Assembly (NCBI GenBank): GCA_009695305.1
Contig: SIBG01000010.1
Span: forward strand, 1,646-65,645
DNA length: 64,000 nt
Source: Opitutus sp.
GTDB lineage: Bacteria; Verrucomicrobiota; Verrucomicrobiia; Opitutales; Opitutaceae
Reading direction: 5' to 3'
The translations under genes were made by a program, and so were the position numbers. The first letter of the stretch is position 1. Each line of letters starts with the position of its first letter. Under the pieces are notes generated by a model that had not been told where the DNA came from, did no database searches, and saw only the letters and a list, made by a program, of their open reading frames with translations. Of the stretch, positions 14,331-41,782 are shown piece after piece.

Positions 14331-14374
14331 GTCGGGGTTTAGCCCCGACACGTCGGGCGTAAAGCCCGACCTAC
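14331..14374. repeat. REP doublet (same family as 7224..7295)
   Basis: GTCGGGG-TTTA-GCCCCGAC AC GTCGGGC-GTAAA-GCCCGAC CTAC. The CTAC overlaps the stop codon of the downstream dipeptidase gene. Confidence 0.7.
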
Positions 14375-15606
14375 AGCCCGTTGCGCCGCTTCGCCAGCTC
14401 CTCCGCGGCGTGCAGGAGGCGCAGCGTGTTGCCGCCCCAGATTTTTCCCACGTCGGCCTCCGACACGCCATGCTTCAGCAGCGCGAGGGTGATCTTCGGG
14501 TAGTCGCTCACATCCTCGAGCCCGACCACGCCGCCGCCATCCATGTCCGCGCCGATGCCAACATGCTCGGCGCCCGCGATGTCGATGGCGTGAAAGAGGT
14601 GCTTCAGAAAATCGTCGAGCGTCGCCCGCGGGATTTTGAACTGTTCCGCCAGCTTCTGGCCCGCGAGGGATCGCTCGACTCGCTGCGCACCCGTCAGACT
14701 GCTCCCGGCGTATTTCGCGGTGAGCCTGGCTTTGGCCGCATTGAACTCGGGATTGATCGGCACCGGAATCATGAACTCGCTCACCGTGTTCATCTGGATG
14801 ACGCCGCCGTGCGCAGCGAGTTCGCGCATGAGCTCGTCCGTGACGTTGCGCGGGTGCGAACAGATCGCCTTGCAGGCGGAGTGCGTGAGGATCAACGGCG
14901 TCTGCGAGAGCGTGATAAGTTCGTGCAGCACGGTGTCGGCGGAATGCGAGGCGTCGATGACGAGGCCGAGGCGGTTGCATTCCTAGACCGCGTCCCGGCC
15001 GAGCGGGCTGAGGCCGTGCCACTCGGGGCCCGCGGTCGGCTGCGAGGAATCGCCGAGGTCGTTGTTGCCGTTGTGGACGAAACCAAAAAATCGCGCGCCG
15101 AGCTGGTGGTAAGTTTTGAGCAACGTGAGGTCCTGGCCGATCGCGTAGCCGTTCTCGACACTGAGGTAGAGAGCGCGTTTGCCCGCCGCCATGAGGCGCG
15201 GACCGTCGGCCGCGGTGAGCGCCAGTCCGCATTGCTCCGGGAAACGCTCGGCCACGGCCTGCACGCGCCGGAAGGTGCGCAGGGCGTTGTCGCGCACGGC
15301 CGCGTAGCCTTCCGGTGTGCGCGGACCTTGATCGACGTAGACGGCGAAGACGCCCGCCTTCAGCCCGCCGTCGCGCATCCGCGGAAAATCCAGCTGCGAA
15401 AAATCCGTCGCGCGGTCGTGGCGTTGCGCGATGTCCCAGTCGGGGCGGCGGAGGCTGAGCGTCGGCGTGTCGATGTGCGTGTCGATCGTGAAGATCCGCG
15501 CATGCCACGCCGCGGCGCGGGCGGCGAGTTCGGCGTCCGTTTCGGCGCAGAGCGCGGGAAGCAACGCGAGGGTGAGCAGTGAAAACGAAGAGCGAGCTAG
15601 GTTCAT
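14371..15606 (-). pseudogene. M19 dipeptidase paralog with signal peptide, interrupted by one in-frame TAG
   Basis: ORFs 14983..15810 and 14371..14931 are in the same frame. The TAG at 14983..14985 splits ...GLSPLGRDAV*ECNRLGLVIDASHS, which is collinear with the paralog's GLSPLGREVVAECNRLGLVLDASH. The ATG at 15606 gives MNLARSSFSLLTLALLPALCA. Confidence 0.8.
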
Positions 15607-15805
15607 GATTCGGGGAAGGCTCCGACAGTGAGAACGGCGGGGCGCGTTGCAAGCCGGAGGCCAGGCCAGAATTTCAATTCCGCTGGTTAGGCCCGTTCCA
15701 GGTCCGACTCCAATCTTGAAACGCGGAGGTCGCGGAGCCCACGGAGAGAAATCGCTTCGACTTCGCGTTCCCCGCGCATACCTCGGACGTGTTTTCAAAA
15801 TGCTT

Positions 15806-15870
15806 GTCATCGCGAGGTGCGCAAAGCGCGCCGTGGCGATCCAGCTGGATTGCGTCGTCGCATCTCCGCA
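15806..15870. repeat. GTCATCGCGAG-family palindromic element (degenerate right arm)
   Basis: GTCATCGCGAGGTGCGCAAAGCGCGCCGTGGCGATCCAGCTGGATTGCGTCGTCGC... Related to the elements at 27438 and 34451. Confidence 0.55.
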
Positions 15871-16864: not shown

Positions 16865-16917
16865 AGGAGACGATGTCTGAGCTGTGAGAGAGCTGTGGGA
16901 GGGGCTTTATGCCCCGA
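16766..16917. repeat. copy A of a 152-bp direct repeat (trxB 3' end + REP half)
   Basis: Matches 19735..19886 at 149 of 152 positions in a hand alignment, with a constant offset of 2969 bp. Confidence 0.9.
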
Positions 16918-17590
16918 CTTAAAAATTTCCATTAATTCAATCGGGGCATAAAGCCCCTCCCACAGTGACAAACCCTGATCCGCTGCCACCGAATCCAGGC
17001 TACTGTGCTCTGCGGCGACATCGCTGGTCCGCTGGCGGTTTCGACTATTTCGTAACGATCAACCTGCACCGCCCAGCCGCGGGATTGAGCGAGCCAGCTC
17101 TGCTCGCAGCGCTCGATCACCAGCGCCTCACACTCGAAGCCGAAGGACACTGGAGCGTCCGCACATGGGTCGTGATGCCCGATCATCTTCATGTGCTCTT
17201 CACGCTGGGCGGAAAAATTTCCCTCGCCGATTGTCTGCGCCTGTTCAAGGGCCGGCTGTCACCCGCGCTCCGGGCACATCGGTTGGCGTGGCAAGATGGC
17301 TATCACGAACATCGCATGAGACCCGAGGAAGACCGCCTGCCGGTCTTCCTCTACATTTTCCTAAACCCGTATCGCGCGAAACTCATTTCAGTGTCGGAAA
17401 AATGGCCGGGATATTTCTGCGCGGTCGAAGACTGGGGTTGGTTTGGCGGTCTCACGAATGCCGACGTGCCTTATCCCAAATGGCTGGGATGAGGACAGCC
17501 GGGGTGCTGGACTCCAAACTGTGAGAGGGGCTTTATGCCCCGATTGGAATTTCATCTCAACCCAATCGGGGCGTAAAGCCCCTCCCACAG
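16893..17590 (+). mobile_element. REP doublet - RAYT - REP doublet unit
   Basis: The Y1 transposase-like ORF is flanked on both sides by inverted pairs of CTGTGGGAGGGGC-TTTAT-GCCCCGA (16893..16965 and 17519..17590). Confidence 0.8.
16965..17492 (+). CDS. REP-associated tyrosine transposase (RAYT, IS200/IS605 Y1-like)
   Basis: YFVTINLH, the HUH motif in VVMPDHLHVLF, and catalytic-Tyr region YIFLNPYRAKL. GTG start inside the REP. Confidence 0.85.
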   Translation: MTNPDPLPPNPGYCALRRHRWSAGGFDYFVTINLHRPAAGLSEPALLAALDHQRLTLEAEGHWSVRTWVVMPDHLHVLFTLGGKISLADCLRLFKGRLSPALRAHRLAWQDGYHEHRMRPEEDRLPVFLYIFLNPYRAKLISVSEKWPGYFCAVEDWGWFGGLTNADVPYPKWLG

Positions 17591-17597
17591 TTTCAGA

Positions 17598-19676
17598 TCA
17601 TCTTTCGAACCCGATCTTCTTGCGCAGCGCCTTGAAGCGCGGTTCGTCGCGGAGAATGTCGTTCACCGGGTCGACCTTGAGAAACCAGCACGCGGCATCG
17701 ATATCTTCGTAGCATTTGTCCAGCCAGTCCAAGGCCTTCGCCTTGTCGCCCAGGCCAAGATAGACCATCACCCGCCATCCGGGGGCAACGAAGCGCAGTT
17801 TCTGTTTCTCCATTTCTTCAAAGCCGCGCAAAATTTCCTCGGCTTTGGCGCGGTCGCCCGCCACGGCATACGCGTAGCCGAGGATGGCGTCGCGAAAAGG
17901 ATGGTTATCCAGCGTCTTCGCTTTCTGCAACGCCGCGATGGCGGCGGCCGATTCCGTTTTGAACAGGGCGCAACTTCCCAACAGGTGATGGGCGGGTGCA
18001 AAGTTGCCGTCCAATTCCAGCACCTTGCGGGCTTGGGCGATCGCTTCGTCGTAGCGGCGCGCGTGGTAGAGCCACCAGCCAAGGTCGCACGCCATCAACG
18101 GCGAGAGCGGGTCCAGTGCGATCGCCTTCTTTTGGTTGGCGATCGACTCGTCAAACCGCGCGAGCATCGCCAGCACCCAGGCGTATTGATCATAGACGAG
18201 CGCGAGGTTGGGATTCAGCTCGATCGCACGCTTCATTTTTTCCTGCCCCGGCTCCCACTCGAAAAGAGCCACCTGCGCCAGCCCCAGCGAAAAATGCGCT
18301 TCGGCCAGATTGGGCGCGAGGGCGAGCGCTTGTTGCGCGAGTTCCTTTTGCTTCGTCCACGCCTCCTTGCCCGACATCACCCCCGGCTGGTAACCGAGGT
18401 TGTCGGCCAGGCCGCAATAGGCCAAGGCGTAGCCCGGATCCGCCTTGATCGCCTCGGTGAAGAATCGCTGGGCGTTGGTCCAGCCCTCGGCGGTGTTCTT
18501 CGCGAAATGGAAACGGCCGAGCAGGTAAAGGCGGTGGGCCTCCGGATTCTCGGTCGCTTTCTTTTCGAGCGATGGCTTGCCGGCGGAGAGCAACGTAATC
18601 TTCAGCGCCGCGGCCACGCGCTCGGCGACGTCGCGCTGCATCTTGAAGATGTCCTTGAACTCGGTGTCGTAGTCCTGCGACCACAGGTGCCGCTGGCTCG
18701 CGACGTCGATCAACTGCACCGTAATCCGCAACTGCTCGCCCGCCTTGCGCACGCTGCCCTCAAGCAGCGTCCCGACCCGAAGTTCCGCGCCGATTTCGGA
18801 GAAACTCTTGCCGGATTTCTTGGCGCGCTCGGACGAAGTGCGCGCGATGACTTCGAGTCCGCTGATTTTTGAGAGGCTGGACGTCAGCTCCTCGGTCAGG
18901 CCGCCCGCGAGGTATTCGTCCTTGGTGTCCGGGCTGAAATTATCGAGCGGCAGCACGGCGAGGCGGTGCGGATCGAGCGCGGTGGATTTGGCTGCTGCCA
19001 AATCCATGGGTCTTGAGGTTTGAGTTTTTGGTTCAACGGCGACCGACGCAGGCGCGGATTTACGGGTGGCGAAGAATCCAACGACGCCAATTACCACGCC
19101 GGCAAGCGCGGCCCACGCCCAGCCGGGCAAGCGTCGTTTGGACTGTAGGGCGGGGTCGCCGGACCCCGCCGCGGTTGACGACGCTGAAGACGGCGCGGTT
19201 CGGCGACCTCGCCCCACGACTGGCACGTCAGCCGGCGCAGCAAGCAGGCGTTTCACTTGCTCGACAAATTGCGTCGTCGGAAGCGCGCCGGGCAGGCGGG
19301 TCCACTGCACCCGCATGAATTCGGCGGGCACGGCCGCGCCGGACTCCGAGGTGTCGTCGATCACGACGGGCGCGAGAAACGGCACGCCTTCCAGCATCAG
19401 GTGCGTTTGCTCGATCGCCAGTTTCCATTCGAGCCGGAAGTAGCCTTTGCTCCGCGCCTGGGTGTTCGTCGAGATGATCGGCAGGAAGAGCGTGCAGTCG
19501 GCGATCTGCCGGCGGATTTTTTGGTCCCACGTGTCTCCGCCGCGCAATTCGTTCTGGTCGAACCACACCTCGACGCCATGGCTGCGCAGCGCCTCGGCGA
19601 TGCGCAGAGCGGCGGCGGTATCCTCGCGCGCGTAGCTGACGAAGACGGCGGTGGGTGATGTGGGAGATTCGGGCAC
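17598..19676 (-). CDS. TIR domain / single TM / TolB_N-like / TPR-repeat protein (paralog 1)
   Basis: GTG start. The TIR_2-like N-terminus reads [47 protein letters not shown]. It is followed by the hydrophobic helix [19 protein letters not shown], then [33 protein letters not shown], and then TPR-like repeats to the C-terminus. Confidence 0.8.
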
Positions 19677-19734
19677 GGATCGGAGTGAACTGTCAGCGAA
19701 CGTGGTGACGGCGTCGGGCGTAGACGAGGAGAAA

Positions 19735-19886
19735 TGCTCCGACCACGTCTACCGCCAGGCGATCACCGCTGCCGGCATGGGCTGCGCCGCCGCGATCGAC
19801 GCCGAGCGCTGGCTGGCGGAGCACCACGGGTAGTGGAGACGATGTCTGAGCTGTGAGAGAGCTGTGGGAGGGGCTTTATGCCCCGA
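19735..19886. repeat. copy B of the 152-bp direct repeat (orphan trxB C-terminal fragment + single REP)
   Basis: Encodes [31 protein letters not shown] plus a stop, identical in context to the trxB tail, followed by CTGTGGGAGGGGCTTTATGCCCCGA without an inverted partner. Confidence 0.9.
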
Positions 19887-19901
19887 TTTGAAGTCGCCAA
19901 A

Positions 19902-21194
19902 TCACCCCACCTCAAACCGCCGCGTCTGGATCGCGTTGCGGCCTGTCTTCAGCATGGGCCGCGGCTCCGGCTGGGCGTAGCCATTCAAATCTACGGCACG
20001 GGCACGCACTTCGTAACGGCCGGGGGCCAGGCCTCGGATCGATGCGGACCAAGAAACCATGCTGTAGCGCAGCGGCCAGGTTGCGGGCTGGCCGGTCACG
20101 GGATTGAAACCCAGAACCTCCCTGGCCGACACCCCGGCCGGGAAGATGTGACTCCAATCGGTGGGCGCATCGTCCAGCCGGCATTCCGTCCATTGCGCGT
20201 TCTGCCACGCTGGATCATCCTCGGAAAGTTCGCCGGGCTGGCCGTTGGCGGGACGTAACCAATATTCAACCCGCTGCAAACCCGACCAGCCAGCGATCGC
20301 GAGGCCACTCACGAACACGGGCTGGCCAACGGGAATTTTCCCGCTCACCTCGTCGAGATAGGCCGCCGTCTTGAGGTGCGATTCGGGATCGTTGTTGGCA
20401 ATCGCGTAGGTGTCGTTCGCCTTGAAATCGTTGGTGAGGACGATCTGCTGCAGCCACTTGATGGATTTGAATCCGTGCGACCAGGGAATGACCATCCGCA
20501 CCGGACCGCCGCGTTCCAGCGGGATCGGCGCGCCATTGAGCCGGTAGGCCAGAAAGGCGGGCAGCTCACCCGGCGGCGTTTCCATCGCGGCCGTGTAGCT
20601 CAACGAGGATTGGAATCTCTGCTTCGGGTCGTTGTTGTGAAATCCCCAGTAATAGATGCGGCGCACATTGGTCATCCGGCCGCAGAGCCGCAGCACCTCG
20701 CGCAGCGGCACGCCTTCCCACAAACCCTGCCCCAACGGCGTGGCAATATTCAGGCACTGCATGGCCTTGAGGAACTTCACCCCGTGCTTTCTTCCCAGTT
20801 CCATCAACGCGGCCAGGTCCAACGCGGTTCCGTCCGCGAGTGTCAGCGAGCGGGTGATGCTGGCCGGTAGTTTGACGATCTCATCGACCGTCGGATCGGC
20901 CACGATTTGCAGCCGCCACGTTTCCGGCGTGAGCCGGGCTTGAACGAGCGCGTCGCCGGTGAGCGTGAACGGCTTGGGATTGCCCCGGGACACGTCCTCG
21001 AACTTGTCCGCGGGGGTGAGAAAGGGATGCGGGTAAGTGGTCTTGGGTGGTCGCGGCGGTGCCTGCTTGGGTGCAACCGGAGTCGAAACCTCCGCGGCCA
21101 GCGCGGTGTTGAGCAGCCCCGCGGTCAGCGGGGCGGCAGCGAGGACGGATGTCCTGAGCATGAAGTCGCGGCGAGTGATGGGAGAGGGGGGCAT
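19902..21194 (-). CDS. Tat-exported molybdopterin-dependent oxidoreductase (sulfite-oxidase family)
   Basis: The ATG at 21194 gives MPPSPITRRDFMLRTSVLAAAPL (twin-arginine signal). Also an Oxidored_molyb-like core (KAMQCLN..., LAYRLNGAPIPLERGGPVRMVIPW..GFKSIKWL). Confidence 0.8.
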   Translation of the reverse strand: MPPSPITRRDFMLRTSVLAAAPLTAGLLNTALAAEVSTPVAPKQAPPRPPKTTYPHPFLTPADKFEDVSRGNPKPFTLTGDALVQARLTPETWRLQIVADPTVDEIVKLPASITRSLTLADGTALDLAALMELGRKHGVKFLKAMQCLNIATPLGQGLWEGVPLREVLRLCGRMTNVRRIYYWGFHNNDPKQRFQSSLSYTAAMETPPGELPAFLAYRLNGAPIPLERGGPVRMVIPWSHGFKSIKWLQQIVLTNDFKANDTYAIANNDPESHLKTAAYLDEVSGKIPVGQPVFVSGLAIAGWSGLQRVEYWLRPANGQPGELSEDDPAWQNAQWTECRLDDAPTDWSHIFPAGVSAREVLGFNPVTGQPATWPLRYSMVSWSASIRGLAPGRYEVRARAVDLNGYAQPEPRPMLKTGRNAIQTRRFEVG

Positions 21195-21302
21195 GATTGC
21201 CGATTTTCGATTTTCGATTGCCGATTGAGGCAGGACCAGGGCGATGAAGCGGAAAAGTGAGTCGCTCCGGTTGCTCAATTGGCAATCGCCCATCGGCAAT
21301 TC
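21195..21302. repeat. heptamer-array hairpin (AATCGAA family), two inverted arms
   Basis: Arm 1 (21195..21227) is GATTGCC GATTTTC GATTTTC GATTGCC GATTGAG. Arm 2 (21276..21302) is CAATTGG CAATCGC CCATCGG CAATTC, the inverse complement. It fills the gap between the TIR paralog 2 stop and the molybdoenzyme start. Confidence 0.75.
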
Positions 21303-23629
21303 TCAAAACAGCGGCGCGTTGTTCTTCGGGTCGTTGAGCAGCGCCTCGAACCGCGGGTCGCCGCGGAGCGGGGCATACAACGGGTCGTGTTTCATCTCAT
21401 AGATATTCAGCGAGCCCGGAATGCGCAGCAGCCGGGCAATTTCTCCGATGGCACGGTCTTTGTCACCGTTCCAGGCATCCACTTGGGCGCGCACCACGCT
21501 GATCCCTACGCCGACGAAAGCGTTGTGTGCCTCCGGCATATCCTCCGCTGCCCGGGCGATCCGGCGCAGCGCCTCGTCCTTGTTGCCCAGGATTGCCTCG
21601 ACGAGTGCGGCATCCCGCAGATGCTGGTTATTGTCCGGCTCGAGTTCAAGCCGCGCACGCAGCGTCGCGGGAATGGTTCCCAGTCGGGCACGCGCGCCGT
21701 CCAGATCGCCCTGGCTGCGGAAAACCGCCGCCGCGATCGTCGCCTTGGTGACATCGGGCAAACCTTCCGGGTCAGTGGGGGGATGGAGTCGATCCAGTCG
21801 GATAAACTCGGCGTAGTCGTTTCGTCGCAGCGCTTGGGTCATTCGCAGGCCGATGACCTCGGGCGATGACGCATCGCGGGCTTCCAGCCGAACGAGCAGT
21901 TCATCCGTGTCCCGGGTTGAACCGGTGGCGAGAAATGTCATCCGTGCAAGCTCCAACGCCCACTCCGGCCCGTCCGGCTGCAGCGCCACCAGGCGGCGTT
22001 GTTCCGCCAGCGCCTCGTCAAAGCGACGGACCATCCGGTAGGCCGACGCCAACACGCGGGCGGTCCCGGCATGGGTCGGGTCGAGCTGCGCCACTGTTCG
22101 CCGGGTGGCAATGTATTCGGGCCAACGACCTTGGATTAACTGGACAATGGCCAGCCGACTGCGTGTCTCGGCATCGTTCGGCTGGAGCCGCAGCAACTTC
22201 TCGAACTGCTCGCTCGCGCGAGCGTGATCCCTGAGGCCAAAATCAAAATAGACGCCGACCGCGCGGATCACCTCAGGCGATTCCGGCGCGAGCGCGCGCG
22301 CCCGGTCGATGGCGACCGTCGCTTTCGCCAGTCTGGCAGGTGTGGTGTCGACGTAGGCAACCCTCATTTCCACGTGCACGACCGCCAGTTCGCCCCACGC
22401 GATCGCAAACGCCGGATCGAGCGCTACGGCGGACTGGAGCAATGACTCCCGCTCTTGAAAAGATGCTTTCAATGATTTGTTGCTGCCTCTCGCCGCACGC
22501 GACTTGAGATAAAGATCGTAAGCGGCGGGATTCTCCGTCGGCCGCCGTGCGATCAGATTTTTTTCCTGCGGCGACAGCACGGTCTGGAGCGCACTGGCGA
22601 TGGCCTGGGCAATTTCGGACTGGATGGCGAAGACGTCGGTCAGTTTACGGGTGTAGGGCTGCGGCGACCAGATGTGGGTGTCGGTGCGGGCGTCGATCAG
22701 CTGGGCGCTCACCCGCACGGAGTCGGCCGCTCGCCGCACGCTGCATTCCAGAATATAGGTGACGCCGAGTTCGCGCGCGATTTCAGGCATTTTCTTGGTC
22801 GTATCGCGGTAGCCTATCACCGACTGGCGCGAGACCACGCGCAGCTCGCGGATGTTTTGCAGATTGGTCAGCACGTCCTCGTGGATGCCGTCGGCGAAGA
22901 ACGCGTTTCCCTTGTCTGGGCTGAGATTCGTGAAGGGCAGCACGGCAATGGACTTGTCGTTCAAAATCGGTGCTGCGGGCCCGGCTTTCGTTTCAGTCGC
23001 GGTCTTCGGCGGTGCGGTGAGTGGCTCGGATTTGCGGGTCGTAAAAAATGCGACGGCGCCAATTGCCGCAGCCGCGACTACGACCCACGTCCAGATCGGG
23101 ACGCCGCGGTTCGTCGGGGAGCGGGCTTTCGAGCCCGGGTCGTCGCGGCCCATGGGCTGGAAAGCCCGTGCCGCTTCGTTCCCCGGTGCGAGGAGGTGTT
23201 TGATTTGCTCGATGAATTGCGGCGTGGGCAGGCCACCGGGGAGGCGGGTCCACTGCACGCGCAGAAATTCCGCGGGCACGAGCGCACGCGATTCGGCGGT
23301 GTCGTCGATGGCCACTGGCACGAGGAACGGCACGCCCGCGGCCATGTCGTGCGTGCGCTCGACGGCGAGTTTCCACTCCCGGCGGAAATAACCTTCGCGG
23401 CGCGCCTGCGTGTGCGCGGAGATCACCGCGAGGAAAAGCGTGCAGCCGCGGATCTGGCCGCGAATCTTTTCGTCCCACGTGTCGCCCCCGTGCAGCTCAT
23501 TCTCGTCGAACCACACTTCGACCCCAAAGCCGCGCAACGCCTCCGCGATGCGGCGGGCGGCGTCGGTGTCCTCGCGCGCGTAACTGAGGAAGACGGCGCG
23601 GGCGTTGGGTGATGGGGGGAGTCGGACAC
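21303..23629 (-). CDS. TIR domain / single TM / TolB_N-like / TPR-repeat protein (paralog 2), 5' end frameshifted
   Basis: The intact ORF 21303..23537 starts at a TTG inside the TIR domain. The same frame continues upstream as ...PPSPNARAVFLSYAREDTDAARRIAEA with no start codon. A GTG at 23627..23629, homologous to the paralog 1 start, is one frame off across a G6 run (23614..23619). Confidence 0.7.
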
Positions 23630-23720
23630 GGGACGGACGAAGACCAATGGAGAACGTGGCCGCCGCGCCGGGTGGAGACGAGGAGAAATACGGAGCAGGT
23701 TTTAACCGCTAGTCCTCGCT

Positions 23721-38377: not shown

Positions 38378-40099
38378 ATGACGACTCGCAAGGGACTCTT
38401 TCTCCACCGGGCGGCCTGGCTGCTGCCGGCGCTCGCCCTGGTGACGGTCGGCTTGGGCATCTCGGCCTGGCGGGAACGCGGACTTTCCCTCGGTGATTCC
38501 GTCTATCGCTCCGTGGCTTTGTTCGATCTTGGCAACAGCATGTATATCGGCGGCCCTGGGACCGATTGGCGATTCCAAGCCGGCCGCTGGACGGGACTGG
38601 CTGTCGTGTTCGGCACGGGCTTTCTGGCACTGGGTGCGGTGTTGCGGGAGCGAATGGCGCTGGCGGTGGCGCGAAAGATGCGACAGGAGGTCATCGTCAT
38701 CGGCGGCACTGAAATCGCCACCAGGGCTTATGAGGCGGCCCGCACCGCCGGGAAGAGCGTCATCTGGGTGGGCGCCCCGACCCTCGGCGTGGGCTCGATC
38801 CGTTCGCTGGCCTTCCCCTGGCCCCCGGGCGACCGGGCCACGATCGTGCGCGAGTATGCCGGCAACGCGGCGCACGTGCTGGTGGCCGGGGATGACGACG
38901 CCGCCACGCTCGTTCTAGCGCGCGCGGCGCGCACGACCGCGCCCAGCGCATCGATCACGATCATGATGCGCGACGCCCGCCTGGCCGAGGAAGCCGCCGC
39001 CACGCTCAATCAGGCCCGCACGCGAGTATTCTCCGTCGCAGCCATCTCCGCCCGGGCGCTGAACTTGAAGCATCCGCCCTTCCTGATCGCTCAGAACCTG
39101 GGCCAACCGCGAATTCATGCGTTGATCATTGGCTTTGGCCAATCCGGCCAAGCCATGGCCCGCGACTTGATGGTAAACTGCCGCACCACGTTTCTCGAAT
39201 TGCCCGCCATCACCGTGATCGATCCCCACGCCAAGGCGCTGGAAGGGGTGATGCGGGTGCGCGCGCCAGAGATCGATGCGTGCGCCCATTTCACCTTTAT
39301 CGAGGGGAAAATTTGCAGCGAGGCCATGGCGCCGGACGTCGCCACCATGGGCGGCGCGATTGCCCGGGGTGGCCCGTTGACCGCTTGCTACGTCTGCCTG
39401 ACGACCGACACGGAAGTTCTTGGCGCCGCCGCGATGCTTCAATCCCTGTTGCGGGCAGTCGACCTTGGACGGCCTCCGTTCTTCGTGCGGTTGGGCGACG
39501 CCAGCATCGTGGCCGGAACGGTCGAGGAAAAGCACGGCCTATACGCCCTGCACGCCTTCGGCGATCTCGGGTCGGTCCTCGCCGCCAGCGAGTTTCTGTC
39601 CGCCACGCCCGATGGCGCCGCCCGGGCCTTCAGCGACGCCTATCGCGCTTCCCTGCCGGCCGCGAAACGCGATGATCCGACCGATCGTTCCGCGCGCTCG
39701 TGGGACGAACTCGACGAAACATTTCGTGAGGTCAACCGGGCGGTCGTCGCGCATATCCCCGCCAAGATGGCCAGCGCCGGGATCGACCCCAGCCTCTGGG
39801 TCGGGGTCAGTCTCCTGCCCCGCCCATCCCAGGACCGGCAACTGTTCGCCACCGAAGCCGAATGCGAGCGACTGGCCGAACTGGAACATGAACGTTGGGC
39901 CGCCCAGCGGCGCATGCAGGGCTGGCGCTGGACGGCCGCGAAGGCCAAAGACGAAATCCGACGCCTGCATCCGTTTTTGGTTCCGTATCGAGACTTGAGT
40001 GACGAGGTCAAGGAGTTCAACCGGGTTTATGTCCGCGAAACTCAACTGGCCTGCTGGGGCACGGCTCGCGCCACGGATCGAGACCACGGCCAACATTAG
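38378..40099 (+). CDS. membrane protein with two Rossmann (TrkA-N-like) modules and a C-terminal RyR domain
   Basis: Two N-terminal hydrophobic helices flank GDSVYRSVALFDLGNSMY. Then VIVIGGTEIA and LIIGFGQSGQAMARDL (GxGxxG). The C-terminal LAELEHERWAAQRRMQGWRW...RRLHPFLVPYRDLSDEVKEFNR matches the RyR-domain pattern. Codon usage is atypical. Confidence 0.7.
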   Translation: MTTRKGLFLHRAAWLLPALALVTVGLGISAWRERGLSLGDSVYRSVALFDLGNSMYIGGPGTDWRFQAGRWTGLAVVFGTGFLALGAVLRERMALAVARKMRQEVIVIGGTEIATRAYEAARTAGKSVIWVGAPTLGVGSIRSLAFPWPPGDRATIVREYAGNAAHVLVAGDDDAATLVLARAARTTAPSASITIMMRDARLAEEAAATLNQARTRVFSVAAISARALNLKHPPFLIAQNLGQPRIHALIIGFGQSGQAMARDLMVNCRTTFLELPAITVIDPHAKALEGVMRVRAPEIDACAHFTFIEGKICSEAMAPDVATMGGAIARGGPLTACYVCLTTDTEVLGAAAMLQSLLRAVDLGRPPFFVRLGDASIVAGTVEEKHGLYALHAFGDLGSVLAASEFLSATPDGAARAFSDAYRASLPAAKRDDPTDRSARSWDELDETFREVNRAVVAHIPAKMASAGIDPSLWVGVSLLPRPSQDRQLFATEAECERLAELEHERWAAQRRMQGWRWTAAKAKDEIRRLHPFLVPYRDLSDEVKEFNRVYVRETQLACWGTARATDRDHGQH

Positions 40100-40444
40100 G
40101 CCAACGACTCGTGAAATCTTGACTCCTCCGTGCAGGCAGCCTGCTTGCCGGCGCTCCGAGGGTCCGCCAGCGGACGGCCGACGAAATTTAAAAACATCCT
40201 AGCCGTTGGTATTAATCACCGCGAAAGCTCCCGACTCGGACCTCGCGGTTTTTACGGCCCCTCGATTAGGCCCCACCGCCAGCCACCGCGACCCCAGCCA
40301 CGAGTCCCGGCAAATCTGCCAGGGTGTTTTGATCTCCAGGTGTGCTCCAAGCCGGCGAACGCTGGTTGACGCGTTCTCCCGTCGAAGTTCAGTTTGCTCA
40401 TTGCGTTCGTCCGTCACCCGGCGCGCGCGAGTTTTCCACTCACC

Positions 40445-41782
40445 ATGAAAGAAATTCTGACCGAGGCCGCGTCCCGGGCGATTCACTACCTGCAGGGTCT
40501 CGAGTCACGCGGCGTCGCCCCCACCCCGGCCGCCGTGGCCGGGCTGCGGGCGTTCGATGCGCCGTTGCCCGCGAAGTCGACTAACCCGGCCGACACCCTG
40601 CGCTTGCTTGATGAAGTCGGCTCGACCGCGATGGCCGGCCCGAGATTTTTTGGCTTTGTCATCGGCGGCTCGCTGCCCGTCACCCTCGCCGCCAACTGGC
40701 TCGCCGGTGCCTGGGATCAGAACAGCGCTTACTATCGCGCCACCCCGAGCACGGCCTTTATCGAACAAGTCGCGCTGCGCTGGCTGCTCGACGTCCTGCA
40801 ACTTCCGCCCACCTCAGGCGGCGCGTTTGTCACCGGTGCGACCGTCGCGAATCTCTGCGCGCTCGCCGCCGCCCGGCACGCCGTGCTCGATCGCGCGGGT
40901 TGGAACGTCGAAGCGCAGGGCCTGTTCGGTGCTCCGCCCATCACCGTCATCGTCGGCGCCGAGGCGCATCCCTCGGTGACGAAGTCGCTCGGCCTGCTCG
41001 GTCTCGGCCGCCGCCGCGTGGTCCCGGTGCCCGTCGACGAGCAGGGCCGGATGCGCGCCGACCAGTTGCCGGCGATTTCCGGCCCGACGATCGTCTGCGT
41101 GCAAGCCGGCAACGTGAACACGGGCGCTTTCGATCCGATCGGCGAAATCTGCCGCCGCGCCCACGCCGCCGGCGCGTGAGTGCATGTGGACGGTGCCTTC
41201 GGCTTGTGGGCCGCCACCACCCCAGCCCGCGCGCACCTCGCCGCGGGGACGGCCGAAGCCGATTCGTGGGCGACCGACGCCCACAAATGGCTGAACGTGC
41301 CCTACGATAGCGGGCTCGCTTTCGTGCGCGAGGTGCACGTGCTGCAAGCCGCGATGGCGATCACCGCGGAGTATCTGCCCACGGCCAGCGAGTATCGCAA
41401 CCCGGCCGATTTCACGCCCGAGCTTTCCCGGCGCGCCCGCGGCGTCGAGGTCTGGGCCGCCCTGCATTCGCTTGGCCGCGAGGGCCTCGCCGCGATGATC
41501 GAACGAAACTGCACGCAGGCACAGCGCTTCGCCGAAAAACTATCCGCCGCGGGCTTCGAAATCCTGAACGAGGTCGCGCTCAATCAAGTGCTCGTGTCGT
41601 TCGGCGACGCGGCGCGGACCAACCGCGTCATCTCCGCCGTGCAGCAAGAAGGCACCTGCTGGTGCGGCGTCACGATCTGGCAGGGAAAAACCGCCATGCG
41701 GATCAGCGTCTCGTCCTGGGCCACGACCGACGCTGACGTTGATCGCAGCGCCGCCGCGATCATCGCGGTGGCGCTGCGGTAG
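40445..41782 (+). pseudogene. PLP-dependent (group II) decarboxylase interrupted by in-frame TGA
   Basis: ORFs 40394..41179 and 41180..41782 are in the same frame. The junction reads ...AHAAGA-TGA-VHVDGAFGLWAA at 41177..41179. The PLP-lysine motif DAHKWLNVPYDSG lies downstream. Confidence 0.8.

Follow-up and report, generated by a model that had tools for sequence, protein, structure and literature searches.

Paralogous TIR-domain proteins with a predicted transmembrane receptor architecture in Opitutus sp.

Genes and features of the locus

The window (the whole 64 kb stretch of DNA analysed) carries two paralogous minus-strand genes, here called A and B, with a molybdoenzyme gene between them (Table 1). 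The product of gene A matches the public entry 'TIR domain-containing protein [Opitutus sp.]' at 100% identity, and its GTG start is normal, lining up with the starts of orthologues. For gene B, the NCBI model begins at an ATT codon (23646-23648) and yields 781 aa, while the initial annotation had put the start of the gene at 23629, where the GTG proves to be out of frame. A search for in-frame ATG, GTG and TTG codons from the upstream stop to the first TIR strand (βA) returned none; the first canonical start is a TTG at 23537, which would give 744 aa and remove βA. Elsewhere in the window, in-frame stops occur in two other genes, encoding an M19 dipeptidase (TAG) and a PLP decarboxylase (TGA).

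Gene B, an extra copy, has a doubtful start codon; lacking a canonical one, it may be little expressed or silent. That gene B, and perhaps gene A with it, is non-functional or in decay here, its architecture a relic, nevertheless seems very improbable. While the start of gene B, the two interrupted genes elsewhere in the window and the lack of nearby partner genes are consistent with decay, the frames are otherwise intact (692 and ~780 codons) with every conserved motif kept, gene A starts normally, and the defects could be consensus errors, the genome being metagenome-assembled.

Table 1. Coordinates of features at the locus (positions in the window)
Feature	Position	Strand	Remarks
Gene A	17598..19676	-	692 aa, GTG start; TIR, one TM helix, TolB_N-like module, TPR repeats
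Gene A TIR domain	19242..19649	-	residues 10-145; Pfam TIR_2, AF2, Foldseek
Gene A catalytic-position Glu83	19428-19430	-	
Gene A transmembrane helix	19068..19124	-	residues 185-203; sole segment so hydrophobic
Gene A TolB_N-like α/β module	18573..18962	-	residues ~239-368; AF2 and Foldseek
Gene A TPR solenoid	17601..18572	-	residues ~369-692; Pfam TPR_17, TPR_2, TPR_11, TPR_8 above threshold
Gene B	21303..23648	-	paralogue; TIR, one TM helix, TolB_N-like module, TPR repeats
Gene B TIR domain	23190..23597	-	residues 18-153 of 781-aa model; Pfam TIR_2
Gene B Glu91	23376-23378	-	
Gene B transmembrane helix	23046..23102	-	VPIWTWVVVAAAAIGAVAF; residues 183-201 of 781-aa model
Gene B predicted extracytoplasmic part	21306..22949	-	TolB_N-like module 22560-22949, TPR solenoid 21306-22559
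Sulfite-oxidase-family molybdoenzyme with Tat signal	19902..21194	-	Pfam Oxidored_molyb E 4.2e-23
REP-associated tyrosine transposase (RAYT) gene	16965..17492	+	NCBIfam REP_Tyr_transpos 86.4 bits vs cut-off 80
REPIN-like palindromes either side of RAYT gene	16893-16965, 17516-17593		inverted repeats; element 16893..17593 (+)
Single REP core, 21 nt	19866..19886	+	intergenic, molybdoenzyme gene to gene A; same core as RAYT palindromes

Domain architecture and membrane topology

The architecture first read from the letters alone, with a TIR domain, one transmembrane helix, a TolB_N-like module and TPR-like repeats, was borne out in both genes; the motifs quoted for it were all found, as was one hydrophobic helix in each protein. 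Pfam TIR_2 lies above threshold in both proteins (E 1.1e-20 in A, 3.2e-20 in B), and a low-complexity linker separates the TIR from the helix in each. Several Pfam TPR families match both proteins (TPR_END_plus in B, E 2.3e-7), and the solenoid of A also matches TPR structures in the PDB. The TolB_N-like assignment of the ~130-aa module was supported by structure and by NCBIfam TolB in B (E 1.1e-6, residues 232-355), with Pfam TolB_N reaching only E=0.05 in A; the AF2 model of the A module (pLDDT 83.6) matched the TolB N-domain, PelC, GNA1162, LpoB and the CadC periplasmic domain in Foldseek (E 4e-7 to 2e-4).

Both proteins are likely single-pass with the N-in/C-out topology that the initial annotation had suggested, placing the TIR in the cytoplasm and the TolB_N-like and TPR regions outside. 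No signal peptide is present, the TIR beginning at residue ~10, and each helix is the sole segment of its kind in the protein (Kyte-Doolittle 19-residue window score 1.91 in A; 2.06 in B). Exactly one segment exceeds the hydrophobicity threshold in 28 of the 31 close homologues, always within residues ~155-215, and the remaining three peak in the same range just under the threshold. The positive-inside bias at the helix is weak, with a Lys/Arg count of 97 on the N-side vs 73 on the C-side. Every structural match of the TolB_N-like module is an envelope protein; the TolB_N-TPR module is not obligately periplasmic, because the wHTH regulator P0103 carries it without a transmembrane helix.

The predicted TIR active site and a shared sensor cassette

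The two proteins are 41% identical over 561 aa, and identity by domain falls from 75% in the TIR to 38% in the TolB_N-like module and 29% in the TPR region. Sequence alignment to AbTir places E83 of A on E208, as expected from the catalytic Glu originally proposed, together with Y79 on W204 and G47-D48-T49, from the BB loop G47-D48-T49-W50, on G174-D175-S176. In AbTir, the key residue for catalysis is E208, whereas cyclisation needs W204 and activity depends on G174/S176 (bioRxiv 10.1101/2022.05.07.491051). The Glu and Tyr are kept in all 31 close homologues and in 143 of the 145 best-scoring 50%-identity cluster representatives. The AF2 model of the A TIR (pLDDT 90.4) superposes best on AbTir, SARM1 and SPARTA TIR-APAZ, in line with the structural check proposed at the outset, and reaches a Foldseek TM of 0.77 to AbTir 7uxu and to the SPARTA TIR. 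Judged by the catalytic Glu, the αC aromatic residue and the BB-loop Gly, the TIRs of A and B are predicted to be of the NAD+-cleaving type; a conserved catalytic Glu does not in itself prove activity.

The remainder of the protein is found with other outputs. Homologues P0048 and P0086 (cyclase) and P0110 (kinase) combine an N-terminal ATP/GTP-using domain with a transmembrane helix, a TolB_N-like module and TPRs, in the same order as A. The sensor part of A is 50-56% identical to the cyclase-linked proteins over 65-75% of its length, and thus nearer to them than to paralogue B (29-38%). By sequence, a single sensor cassette appears to have been joined to a TIR, a class III cyclase or a Ser/Thr kinase by output swapping. 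Cyclase, Ser/Thr kinase and CadC/HilA-type wHTH receptors share this homologous cassette in the same order, whereas the cytoplasmic output of A and B is a TIR. A literature search returned no known ligand for these TolB-like/TPR receptors.

The putative receptor family and its neighbours in relatives

The TIR/TM/TolB_N-like/TPR receptors form a large, unstudied family, the TIR subfamily comprising at least 1,709 clusters (50% identity; representatives at E<=1e-30) with at least 586 matches among genomes that represent species. Its members often lie in tandem arrays, the TIR conserved and the ectodomains divergent. In a genomic-neighbourhood survey of 80 loci, 32 carried two or more TIR genes, and 21, about a quarter, carried a SLATT-domain, TPR-S, SIR2-TIR or nSTAND1 gene. 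The SLATT_1, SLATT_3, nSTAND1, TPR-S and SIR2_2 matches in neighbour proteins all exceed Pfam thresholds. At ~16 related loci, a SLATT-domain or TPR-S protein is encoded divergently, directly upstream of the receptor TIR gene, making these proteins candidate receivers of the TIR product. Such neighbours, of the kind that encode cell-killing effectors, strengthen the initial suggestion of a TIR-signalling or abortive-infection-type role, which stays a hypothesis for the window, where they are absent. A nucleotide-sensor role for the SLATT-domain partner is conjecture: its N-terminal domain gives sub-threshold SLOG/DRHyd-type matches (cpYpsA E~0.1; Nuc_deoxyrib_tr E 4e-4 at best).

These neighbours bear on a reading in which the TIRs are non-enzymatic assembly scaffolds, such that ligand-bound receptors nucleate TIR-TIR filaments and recruit SIR2-TIR or TIR-TPR proteins, with the recruited partner (e.g., a SIR2 NADase) performing the function, as in the logic by which animal TLRs engage adaptors. 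Several observations are in keeping with it: near-alike TIRs of the same subfamily occur within the same operons on SIR2 fusions, which retain the Glu, and on TPR proteins lacking a TM helix; the SIR2-TIR and nSTAND1 genes that directly follow receptor genes have stop-to-start overlaps; and paralogues are 64-78% identical in the TIR vs 27-33% in the remainder of the protein, which fits a shared interaction surface. We nonetheless regard this reading as unlikely, since the catalytic Glu, αC aromatic residue and BB-loop Gly are essentially invariant, which is unexpected for a pure scaffold, the nearest structures are enzymatic TIRs and not those of TLRs or MyD88, and the window lacks a SIR2-TIR gene. 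Scaffold and enzyme roles can also coexist.

Genomic context and inheritance

The locus had been described as a compositionally foreign, horizontally acquired block, and this description did not hold. The CTG/TTG/CGG codon preference is real, yet some ten further genes of the window have it too, and the leave-one-out codon log-likelihood z values of the three genes in the block are ordinary (-0.4, -1.5 and -1.1). Orthologues of gene A occupy the same chromosomal slot, by trxB and M19 dipeptidases, in two further lineages of Opitutaceae (L001/L002, L003), the order in relatives being Suf–Fur–VanY–Mo-enzyme–TIR–trxB–dipeptidases at 59–60% identity. A housekeeping context with backbone-like composition, one of the outcomes named beforehand as counting against the initial annotation, is thus what gene A presents. 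By this synteny and the ordinary codon statistics, gene A is vertically inherited, and A and B are ordinary chromosomal residents that stand alone among conserved housekeeping genes.

The intervening gene was correctly read as a Tat-exported sulfite-oxidase-family molybdoenzyme, having an Oxidored_molyb match and a twin-arginine motif (TRRDFML; MPPSPITRRDFML). It probably starts with the ATG at 21192-21194 (the longest ORF reaches 21299), its cluster members measure 430-432 aa, and matches to SorA, SorT and MsrP are sub-threshold. It adjoins a TIR gene only in the window and at L001/L002/L006, that is, in 2 lineages among the 80 loci surveyed, and was ruled out as a conserved system partner on this basis; it is a lineage-specific neighbour.

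As originally noted, no ThsA/SIR2/Macro-type partner is adjacent: a search of the 64 kb window for SIR2, Macro, SLATT or STAND partners returned none, and no defence genes were found there. Nor does the locus match an established defence layout, PADLOC returning domain-level TIR matches only.

Genes A and B might instead encode housekeeping sensors of the envelope or the environment that play no part in immunity, the TIR tuning NAD+/ADPR-type metabolism or signalling in parallel with sister receptors that tune cAMP (cyclase) or phosphorylation (kinase), and the cue possibly relating to the molybdoenzyme (e.g., oxidised sulfur compounds or methionine sulfoxide stress). The synteny of gene A with trxB, M19 dipeptidases, VanY, Fur and Suf, the retention of the molybdoenzyme beside it in two lineages and the defence-free window all suit such a role, as do the lack of matches in phage genomes and the occurrence of the cassette in thousands of cyclase, kinase and wHTH proteins, many on rhizobial megaplasmids. 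This explanation remains doubtful in our view, given the rarity of molybdoenzyme adjacency in the survey and its absence from syntenic L003, and given the tandem paralogue arrays, diverging ectodomains and recurring SLATT-domain/SIR2/STAND neighbours, which are traits of conflict systems.

Proposed function and comparison with known systems

We favour, with a probability of about 0.55, the reading of A and B as one-component receptors that span the membrane and have TIR-catalysed NAD+ cleavage or signalling as their output; a role in immunity is plausible. In the mechanism that we infer, a ligand in the periplasm or envelope, probably peptide or protein because the ectodomain has TPRs, would alter the oligomeric state of the ectodomain and thereby gather the TIR domains together. 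The active site of NADase TIRs is built across two protomers, and assembly would start NAD+ cleavage, and this would release a nucleotide signal of the cADPR type, deplete NAD+ locally, or do both. A parallel may lie in the sister proteins, where the TM-TolB_N-TPR cassette would drive a class III cyclase, a second-messenger-making enzyme that requires dimerisation. Since neither the window nor ~70% of the well-covered related loci contain an effector-type partner, signalling would need unlinked receivers, or the TIR would act alone.

In both sequence and structure, the best matches are enzymatic bacterial TIRs (AbTir, BtTir, PdTIR; Thoeris ThsB; SPARTA TIR-APAZ), which have in common with A the TIR_2 fold, the E208-position Glu, the W204-position aromatic residue and the BB-loop Gly. 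To our knowledge, these enzymes are soluble and are triggered by cytoplasmic cues or fused cytoplasmic sensors (SAVED, STING, Argonaute/APAZ, STAND), whereas the TIR of A and B is predicted to be membrane-tethered and joined to a large extracytoplasmic sensor.

With animal Toll-like receptors, A and B share a solenoid-repeat ectodomain, one transmembrane helix and a cytoplasmic TIR, as well as membership of multigene families in which the TIR is conserved and the ectodomains vary. The polarity is reversed, however, with the TIR N-terminal, the ectodomain C-terminal and no signal peptide; TPRs and a TolB_N-like module stand in place of LRRs; and the TIR has a catalytic Glu, for which we know of no use in scaffold-type TLR TIRs. 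On account of these three differences, the resemblance is best read as convergent, with no sign of shared ancestry.

Type VII Thoeris is reported to pair a TIR with the SLATT-domain effector ThsH through a cADPR signal, and type VIII a TIR with the TPR-containing ThsI (bioRxiv 10.64898/2025.12.03.692087); that preprint makes no mention of periplasmic-sensor TIRs, the word 'periplasm' having 0 occurrences. Judged by the domains of the partners, the TIR-plus-effector pairing at the ~16 related loci resembles these types. Unlike Thoeris VII/VIII, the window has no SLATT-domain or TPR effector, and the TIR proteins of the family are transmembrane, arrayed and accompanied by SIR2-TIR and nSTAND1 genes.

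A REP-associated element beside gene A

The RAYT element, an insertion separating trxB from gene A, is not part of the receptor. Its ORF is the sole compositional outlier (codon z = -2.75), and the element is missing from syntenic loci L001 and L003. The 21-nt REP core has 5 matches in the window vs 0.01 expected.

Domain architecture and membrane topology

Two paralogous minus-strand genes of the window, A and B, encode members of a TM-TolB_N-TPR receptor family that carry a TIR domain at their N-terminus. The order of TIR domain, single TM helix, TolB_N-like module and TPR repeats proposed in the initial annotation is correct, since Pfam TIR_2 recognised both proteins at about 74 bits (74.8 and 73.3; cut-off 28) together with several TPR families, each protein contains one strongly hydrophobic segment of 19 residues about 40 residues past the TIR domain, and an α/β module of TolB_N-like type follows this helix in both. 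The Pfam TolB_N match of the module (~130 residues) is weak (E 0.05). NCBIfam, in turn, assigns it to a TolB model in B (E 1e-6) and to a CadC model in A (E 1e-7), and its AF2 model (pLDDT 83.6) matches the TolB N-terminal domain, PelC, GNA1162, LpoB and the CadC periplasmic domain (E 4e-7 to 2e-4). The product of gene A is also 50-56% identical, over 65-75% of its length, to proteins containing PF00211 or PF00069, its TPR solenoid being homologous to the one in these cyclase- and kinase-linked proteins. Overall identity between A and B is 41%, made up of 75% in the TIR domain, 38% in the TolB_N-like module and 29% in the TPR part.

Four observations favour a TIR domain inside the cell and a sensor outside, the orientation previously suggested for these proteins. 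A signal peptide is absent, with the TIR domain starting at about residue 10; around the one TM helix, Lys/Arg residues are in slight excess on the N-terminal side (97 versus 73 in 31 proteins); the structural relatives of the post-TM module are all envelope proteins; and homologues exist in which the TM-TolB_N-TPR cassette is preceded, at the N-terminus, by a class III cyclase or a Ser/Thr kinase. Class III cyclases and Ser/Thr kinases require cytoplasmic nucleotides. As a caveat, one homologue (P0103), fused to a wHTH domain, has the sensor cassette without a TM helix, so that the cassette is also found in soluble regulators. This wHTH (Trans_reg_C) protein contains two TolB_N-like-TPR cassettes, and NCBIfam models further relate it to HilA/EilA and CadC.

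Enzymatic class of the TIR domain

The AF2 model of the TIR domain (pLDDT 90.4) was matched by Foldseek with a probability of 1.00 and TM scores of 0.69-0.77 to the TIR domains of SARM1, AbTir and SPARTA, the closest structures being SARM1, AbTir (TM 0.77) and SPARTA TIR-APAZ. In a PDB sequence search, the bacterial NADase TIRs BtTir (7uxr), PdTIR and AbTir ranked first. Alignment of A with AbTir places Y79 on W204, E83 on E208 and G47-D48-T49 on G174-D175-S176, and phmmer against the AbTir chains 7uwg and 8g83 likewise pairs E83 with the Glu of W-T-N-Y-E. The key residue for catalysis by AbTir is E208; cyclisation requires W204, and G174 and S176 are needed for activity (bioRxiv 10.1101/2022.05.07.491051). 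At the level of sequence alignment, the Glu of the receptor TIRs thus occupies the catalytic position that had been proposed for it. Both this Glu and the Tyr are found in 31 of 31 close homologues and in 143 of the 145 best-scoring cluster representatives at 50% identity; Tyr79, the aromatic residue at the W204 position, is invariant, and the BB-loop motif G47-D48-x-W50 is conserved. By every sequence and structure feature tested, the TIR domains of A and B are of the enzymatic type, and NADase activity is predicted for them.

Gene models

The coordinates of all features are collected in the table below. A public protein that bears no fuller name than "TIR domain-containing protein [Opitutus sp.]" has the same sequence as the product of gene A. 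The 5' end of gene B is problematic. Its frame is open from a stop near 23711 down to the TIR domain, and no in-frame ATG, GTG or TTG occurs upstream of that domain on the minus strand (23537-23711); the first canonical start, a TTG at 23537, would yield 744 aa without TIR strand βA. The initial annotation had placed the 5' end of gene B at 23629, where a GTG lies in the wrong frame and was rejected as a start. An in-frame GTC is located at 23625-23627, two codons upstream of the aligned position of the gene A start. A lost start, a rare start codon and a consensus error are possible explanations. A more general reading, in which the receptor genes are decaying or non-functional, might draw on this defect; set beside the intact gene A and the conserved motifs present in both proteins, it is highly improbable. 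The molybdoenzyme gene between A and B probably starts at an ATG at 21194.

Coordinates of the features discussed, in the window and in loci of related genomes (L handles)
Feature	Location	Strand	Remarks
Gene A	17598..19676	-	intact ORF, GTG start, 692 aa
Gene B	stop end 21303; start ATT 23646-23648	-	NCBI model MSU22873.1, 781 aa
Molybdoenzyme gene, sulfite-oxidase family	between A and B		Pfam Oxidored_molyb E 4e-23; TRRDFML twin-arginine motif
REP-associated tyrosine transposase (RAYT)	16965..17492		NCBIfam 86 bits, cut-off 80
REPIN-like palindromes flanking RAYT	within 16893-17593		two, ~75 nt
REP core, fifth copy	19866-19886		between molybdoenzyme gene and gene A
M19 dipeptidase	14371-15810	-	in-frame TAG at 14983-14985 (…GRDAV*ECNRLGL…)
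PLP-dependent decarboxylase	40394-41782	+	in-frame TGA at 41177-41179 (…HAAGA*VHVDGAFG…)
RyR-domain membrane protein	38378-40099	+	573 aa
Receptor array, L004	GCA_016307145.1 contig, 23.3 kb fetched		at least 9 genes
Receptor array, L007	1-20406		9 genes
Receptor array, L046	3263-16718		5 genes
Full cassette, L043	2339-19472
Full cassette, L021	7574-19786
Full cassette, L058	8007-20309
Full cassette, L053	5512-20342
PRiA4_ORF3-like protein, L021	6379-7011
PRiA4_ORF3-like protein, L043	1686-2300
PRiA4_ORF3-like protein, L052	14782-15378
PRiA4_ORF3-like protein, L060	13719-14318

Composition, synteny and REP elements

The initial annotation had regarded the block as compositionally foreign and horizontally acquired, which the data contradict. 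Its GC content is 0.63-0.65, compared with 0.60-0.70 across the window, GC3 (0.77-0.79) is within the window range, and the leave-one-out codon log-likelihood z-scores of the three genes are -0.4, -1.5 and -1.1. The reported preference for CTG/TTG/CGG over CTC/CGC codons is real but also characterises about ten further genes at scattered positions of the window. In addition, synteny is conserved: orthologues of gene A (59-60% identity) occupy the same slot beside trxB in other Opitutaceae assemblies, within the order Suf-Fur-VanY-Mo-enzyme-TIR-trxB-M19 dipeptidases in L001/L002 and, without the molybdoenzyme, TIR-trxB-M19 dipeptidases in L003. Gene A is therefore vertically inherited, among housekeeping genes. 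At the corresponding position in L001/L002 and L003 only gene B is lacking, and it is thus a lineage-specific extra copy. A horizontally acquired genomic island was therefore rejected, as was the molybdoenzyme as a conserved partner, since among 80 surveyed loci it lies beside the TIR gene only in the window and the L001 lineage. No full-length receptor match was found on plasmids or in phages, plasmids matching the sensor cassette only.

A reading in which the receptors are envelope or environment sensors without an immune role accords with this ordinary setting; the SIR2-TIR and nSTAND1 genes beside receptors in relatives sit less easily with it, and it is considered unlikely.

The sole codon outlier in the window is the RAYT ORF (z = -2.75); the syntenic loci L001 and L003 lack this gene. 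The 21-nt REP core (GGGAGGGGCTTTATGCCCCGA) is present in five copies, versus 0.01 expected.

Family size, tandem arrays and sensor swapping

With a profile of the TIR domain and a threshold of E<=1e-30, 1,709 representatives of 50%-identity clusters were retrieved. In nearly all of these the TIR domain is N-terminal, in proteins ~620-800 or ~1,090-1,200 aa long. Among species-representative genomes, at least 586 matches were obtained, mostly in Opitutaceae, Lacunisphaera and Didemnitutus, with some in Usitatibacteraceae, Steroidobacteraceae and other Proteobacteria. The architecture that dominates the 78 fetched loci is TIR-TolB_N-TPR (97 ORFs). Tandem arrays on one strand are common. In the very long arrays of L004, L007 and L046 stops and starts overlap, and in some members of ~1,100 aa the TM helix and the TolB_N-like module are separated by an additional TPR block. 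Within arrays, TIR domains are 64-78% identical, compared with 27-33% for the TPR part.

The sensor of gene A is closer to cyclase-linked proteins (50-56%) than to the sensor of gene B; output domains have therefore been swapped on a shared sensor. The closest relatives of gene A are stand-alone trxB-linked copies, and those of gene B at full length (50-59%) include cassette-linked copies. Since the sensor cassette is exchanged among TIR, cyclase and kinase outputs, one output could serve to identify the ligand of another.

Partner genes in related loci

Clustering of neighbouring genes and domain scans of related loci revealed a partner cassette. One to four receptor genes have, divergent from them and immediately upstream, a gene that codes in 10 loci for a membrane protein with SLATT_3 and SLATT_1 and in 6 loci for a TPR-S protein. 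The stop of a SIR2_2-TIR_2 fusion gene (10 loci) overlaps the gene of an nSTAND1 NTPase (12 loci) at its start, and additional TIR-TPR genes are often included. In the four full cassettes listed in the table, the nSTAND1 NTPase has a TPR or WD40 tail. At least one partner was found in 21 of the 80 loci, and in 11 of the 39 loci of at least 15 kb.

The SIR2-TIR proteins carry a TIR domain of the receptor subfamily with the same Glu. Their occurrence suits an alternative in which the receptor TIR is purely an assembly scaffold recruiting SIR2-TIR; weighed with the catalytic-type residues conserved in the receptors themselves, this alternative is improbable.

The earlier statements that no SIR2-type partner is adjacent and that the layout is not an established defence system both stand. 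Searches of the window by tblastn with SLATT-domain, TPR-S, SIR2 and nSTAND1 proteins of related loci gave no match, and a Pfam scan of 20 further window ORFs returned housekeeping functions and nothing related to the partners. PADLOC and NCBIfam yielded only domain-level TIR matches for the receptors and the partner proteins, far below family cut-offs; PADLOC recognised none of the partner proteins, nor the full cassette.

The N-terminal domain of the SLATT-domain partner found nothing in a PDB sequence search and gave sub-threshold matches to cpYpsA, Nuc_deoxyrib_tr and DprA (SLOG/DRHyd-type) in a permissive Pfam search, so that a "SLOG-like" assignment stays a weak lead. A C-terminal cyclase in the TPR-S proteins was not established (marginal PDB match, E 0.03). 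Another recurrent neighbour of receptor cassettes, at 5 loci, is a PRiA4_ORF3-like protein (Pfam E 1e-49).

Proposed mechanism and comparison with known systems

The preferred reading, to which we assign slightly better than even odds (roughly 0.55), is that these proteins are receptors with ligand-driven assembly and TIR-catalysed NAD+ cleavage or signalling, with SLATT-domain or TPR-S receivers where present. Binding of a ligand to the ectodomain would alter receptor oligomerisation and assemble the TIR active site; NAD+ cleavage would then generate a nucleotide signal or deplete NAD+, and SLATT-domain and TPR-S proteins may receive the signal at loci that encode them.

Precedents for such receivers are the validated Thoeris types VII and VIII reported in a recent preprint, in which a TIR signals with canonical cADPR to a SLATT-domain effector and to a TPR-containing effector, respectively; the preprint describes no membrane-receptor TIRs (bioRxiv 10.64898/2025.12.03.692087). 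Thoeris systems have an effector gene (SIR2-SLOG, Macro-TM, SLATT-domain and others) beside the TIR gene, as do 21 of the 80 related loci. The window, in contrast, contains no effector gene, and A and B are therefore not a Thoeris system as encoded here. They are also not homologues of Toll-like receptors in architecture. Animal Toll-like receptors are type I proteins whose LRR ectodomain is N-terminal and whose TIR domain is C-terminal, whereas A and B have an N-terminal TIR domain, no signal peptide, a TolB_N-like and TPR rather than LRR ectodomain, and the opposite polarity.

To our knowledge, the characterised bacterial TIR systems (Thoeris, TIR-STING, TIR-SAVED, SPARTA and TIR-STAND) are soluble and triggered inside the cell. 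Literature searches for a TIR + TolB + TPR architecture and for TolB-like cyclases found no description, and this architecture is not mentioned in the Aravind-group papers retrieved; the coupling of a periplasmic sensor to a catalytic-type TIR domain thus appears undescribed in the literature searched.

A broader and more tentative proposal is that the family is a bacterial counterpart of pattern-recognition receptors, in a Thoeris-like pathway whose trigger would lie in the periplasm instead of the cell interior. Arrays of membrane receptors with fast-diverging TPR ectodomains might recognise non-self outside the cytoplasm, for example proteins of phages or competitors that reach the periplasm, and the conserved catalytic TIR domain might signal to SLATT-domain effectors, TPR-S proteins, SIR2-TIR NADases and the nSTAND1 NTPase. 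As orphan receptors, A and B could feed such a pathway in trans or act alone.

What emerges at the family level is notable and can be tested: a catalytically equipped TIR domain lies behind a periplasmic sensor in at least 1,700 clusters (50% identity). If active, these proteins would demonstrate that TIR/NAD+ signalling can be driven from outside the cytoplasm and would represent a convergent bacterial parallel to Toll-like receptors. The cassette loci, with their receptor arrays, SLATT-domain and TPR-S genes, SIR2-TIR fusions and nSTAND1 NTPases, offer a tractable test case. The result for the window is more modest, namely two receptor genes that stand alone in ordinary chromosomal surroundings, and several supporting arguments of the initial annotation fail.

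Other observations in the window

Three single-codon defects were noted in the 64 kb, comprising the missing start of gene B and in-frame stops in the M19 dipeptidase and PLP-dependent decarboxylase genes. The dipeptidase orthologue in L003 has Lys at the TAG position, and the stop reflects a nonsense mutation or else an error in the consensus. The TGA of the decarboxylase gene lies at a position usually occupied by Trp (TGG) in other enzymes of the family. Finally, in the RyR-domain membrane protein, TM segments at the N-terminus are combined with two TrkA-like Rossmann motifs and with the RyR domain (Pfam E 6.7e-11) at the C-terminus; its gene has no established link to the receptors and, like the TIR genes, makes little use of CTC codons.
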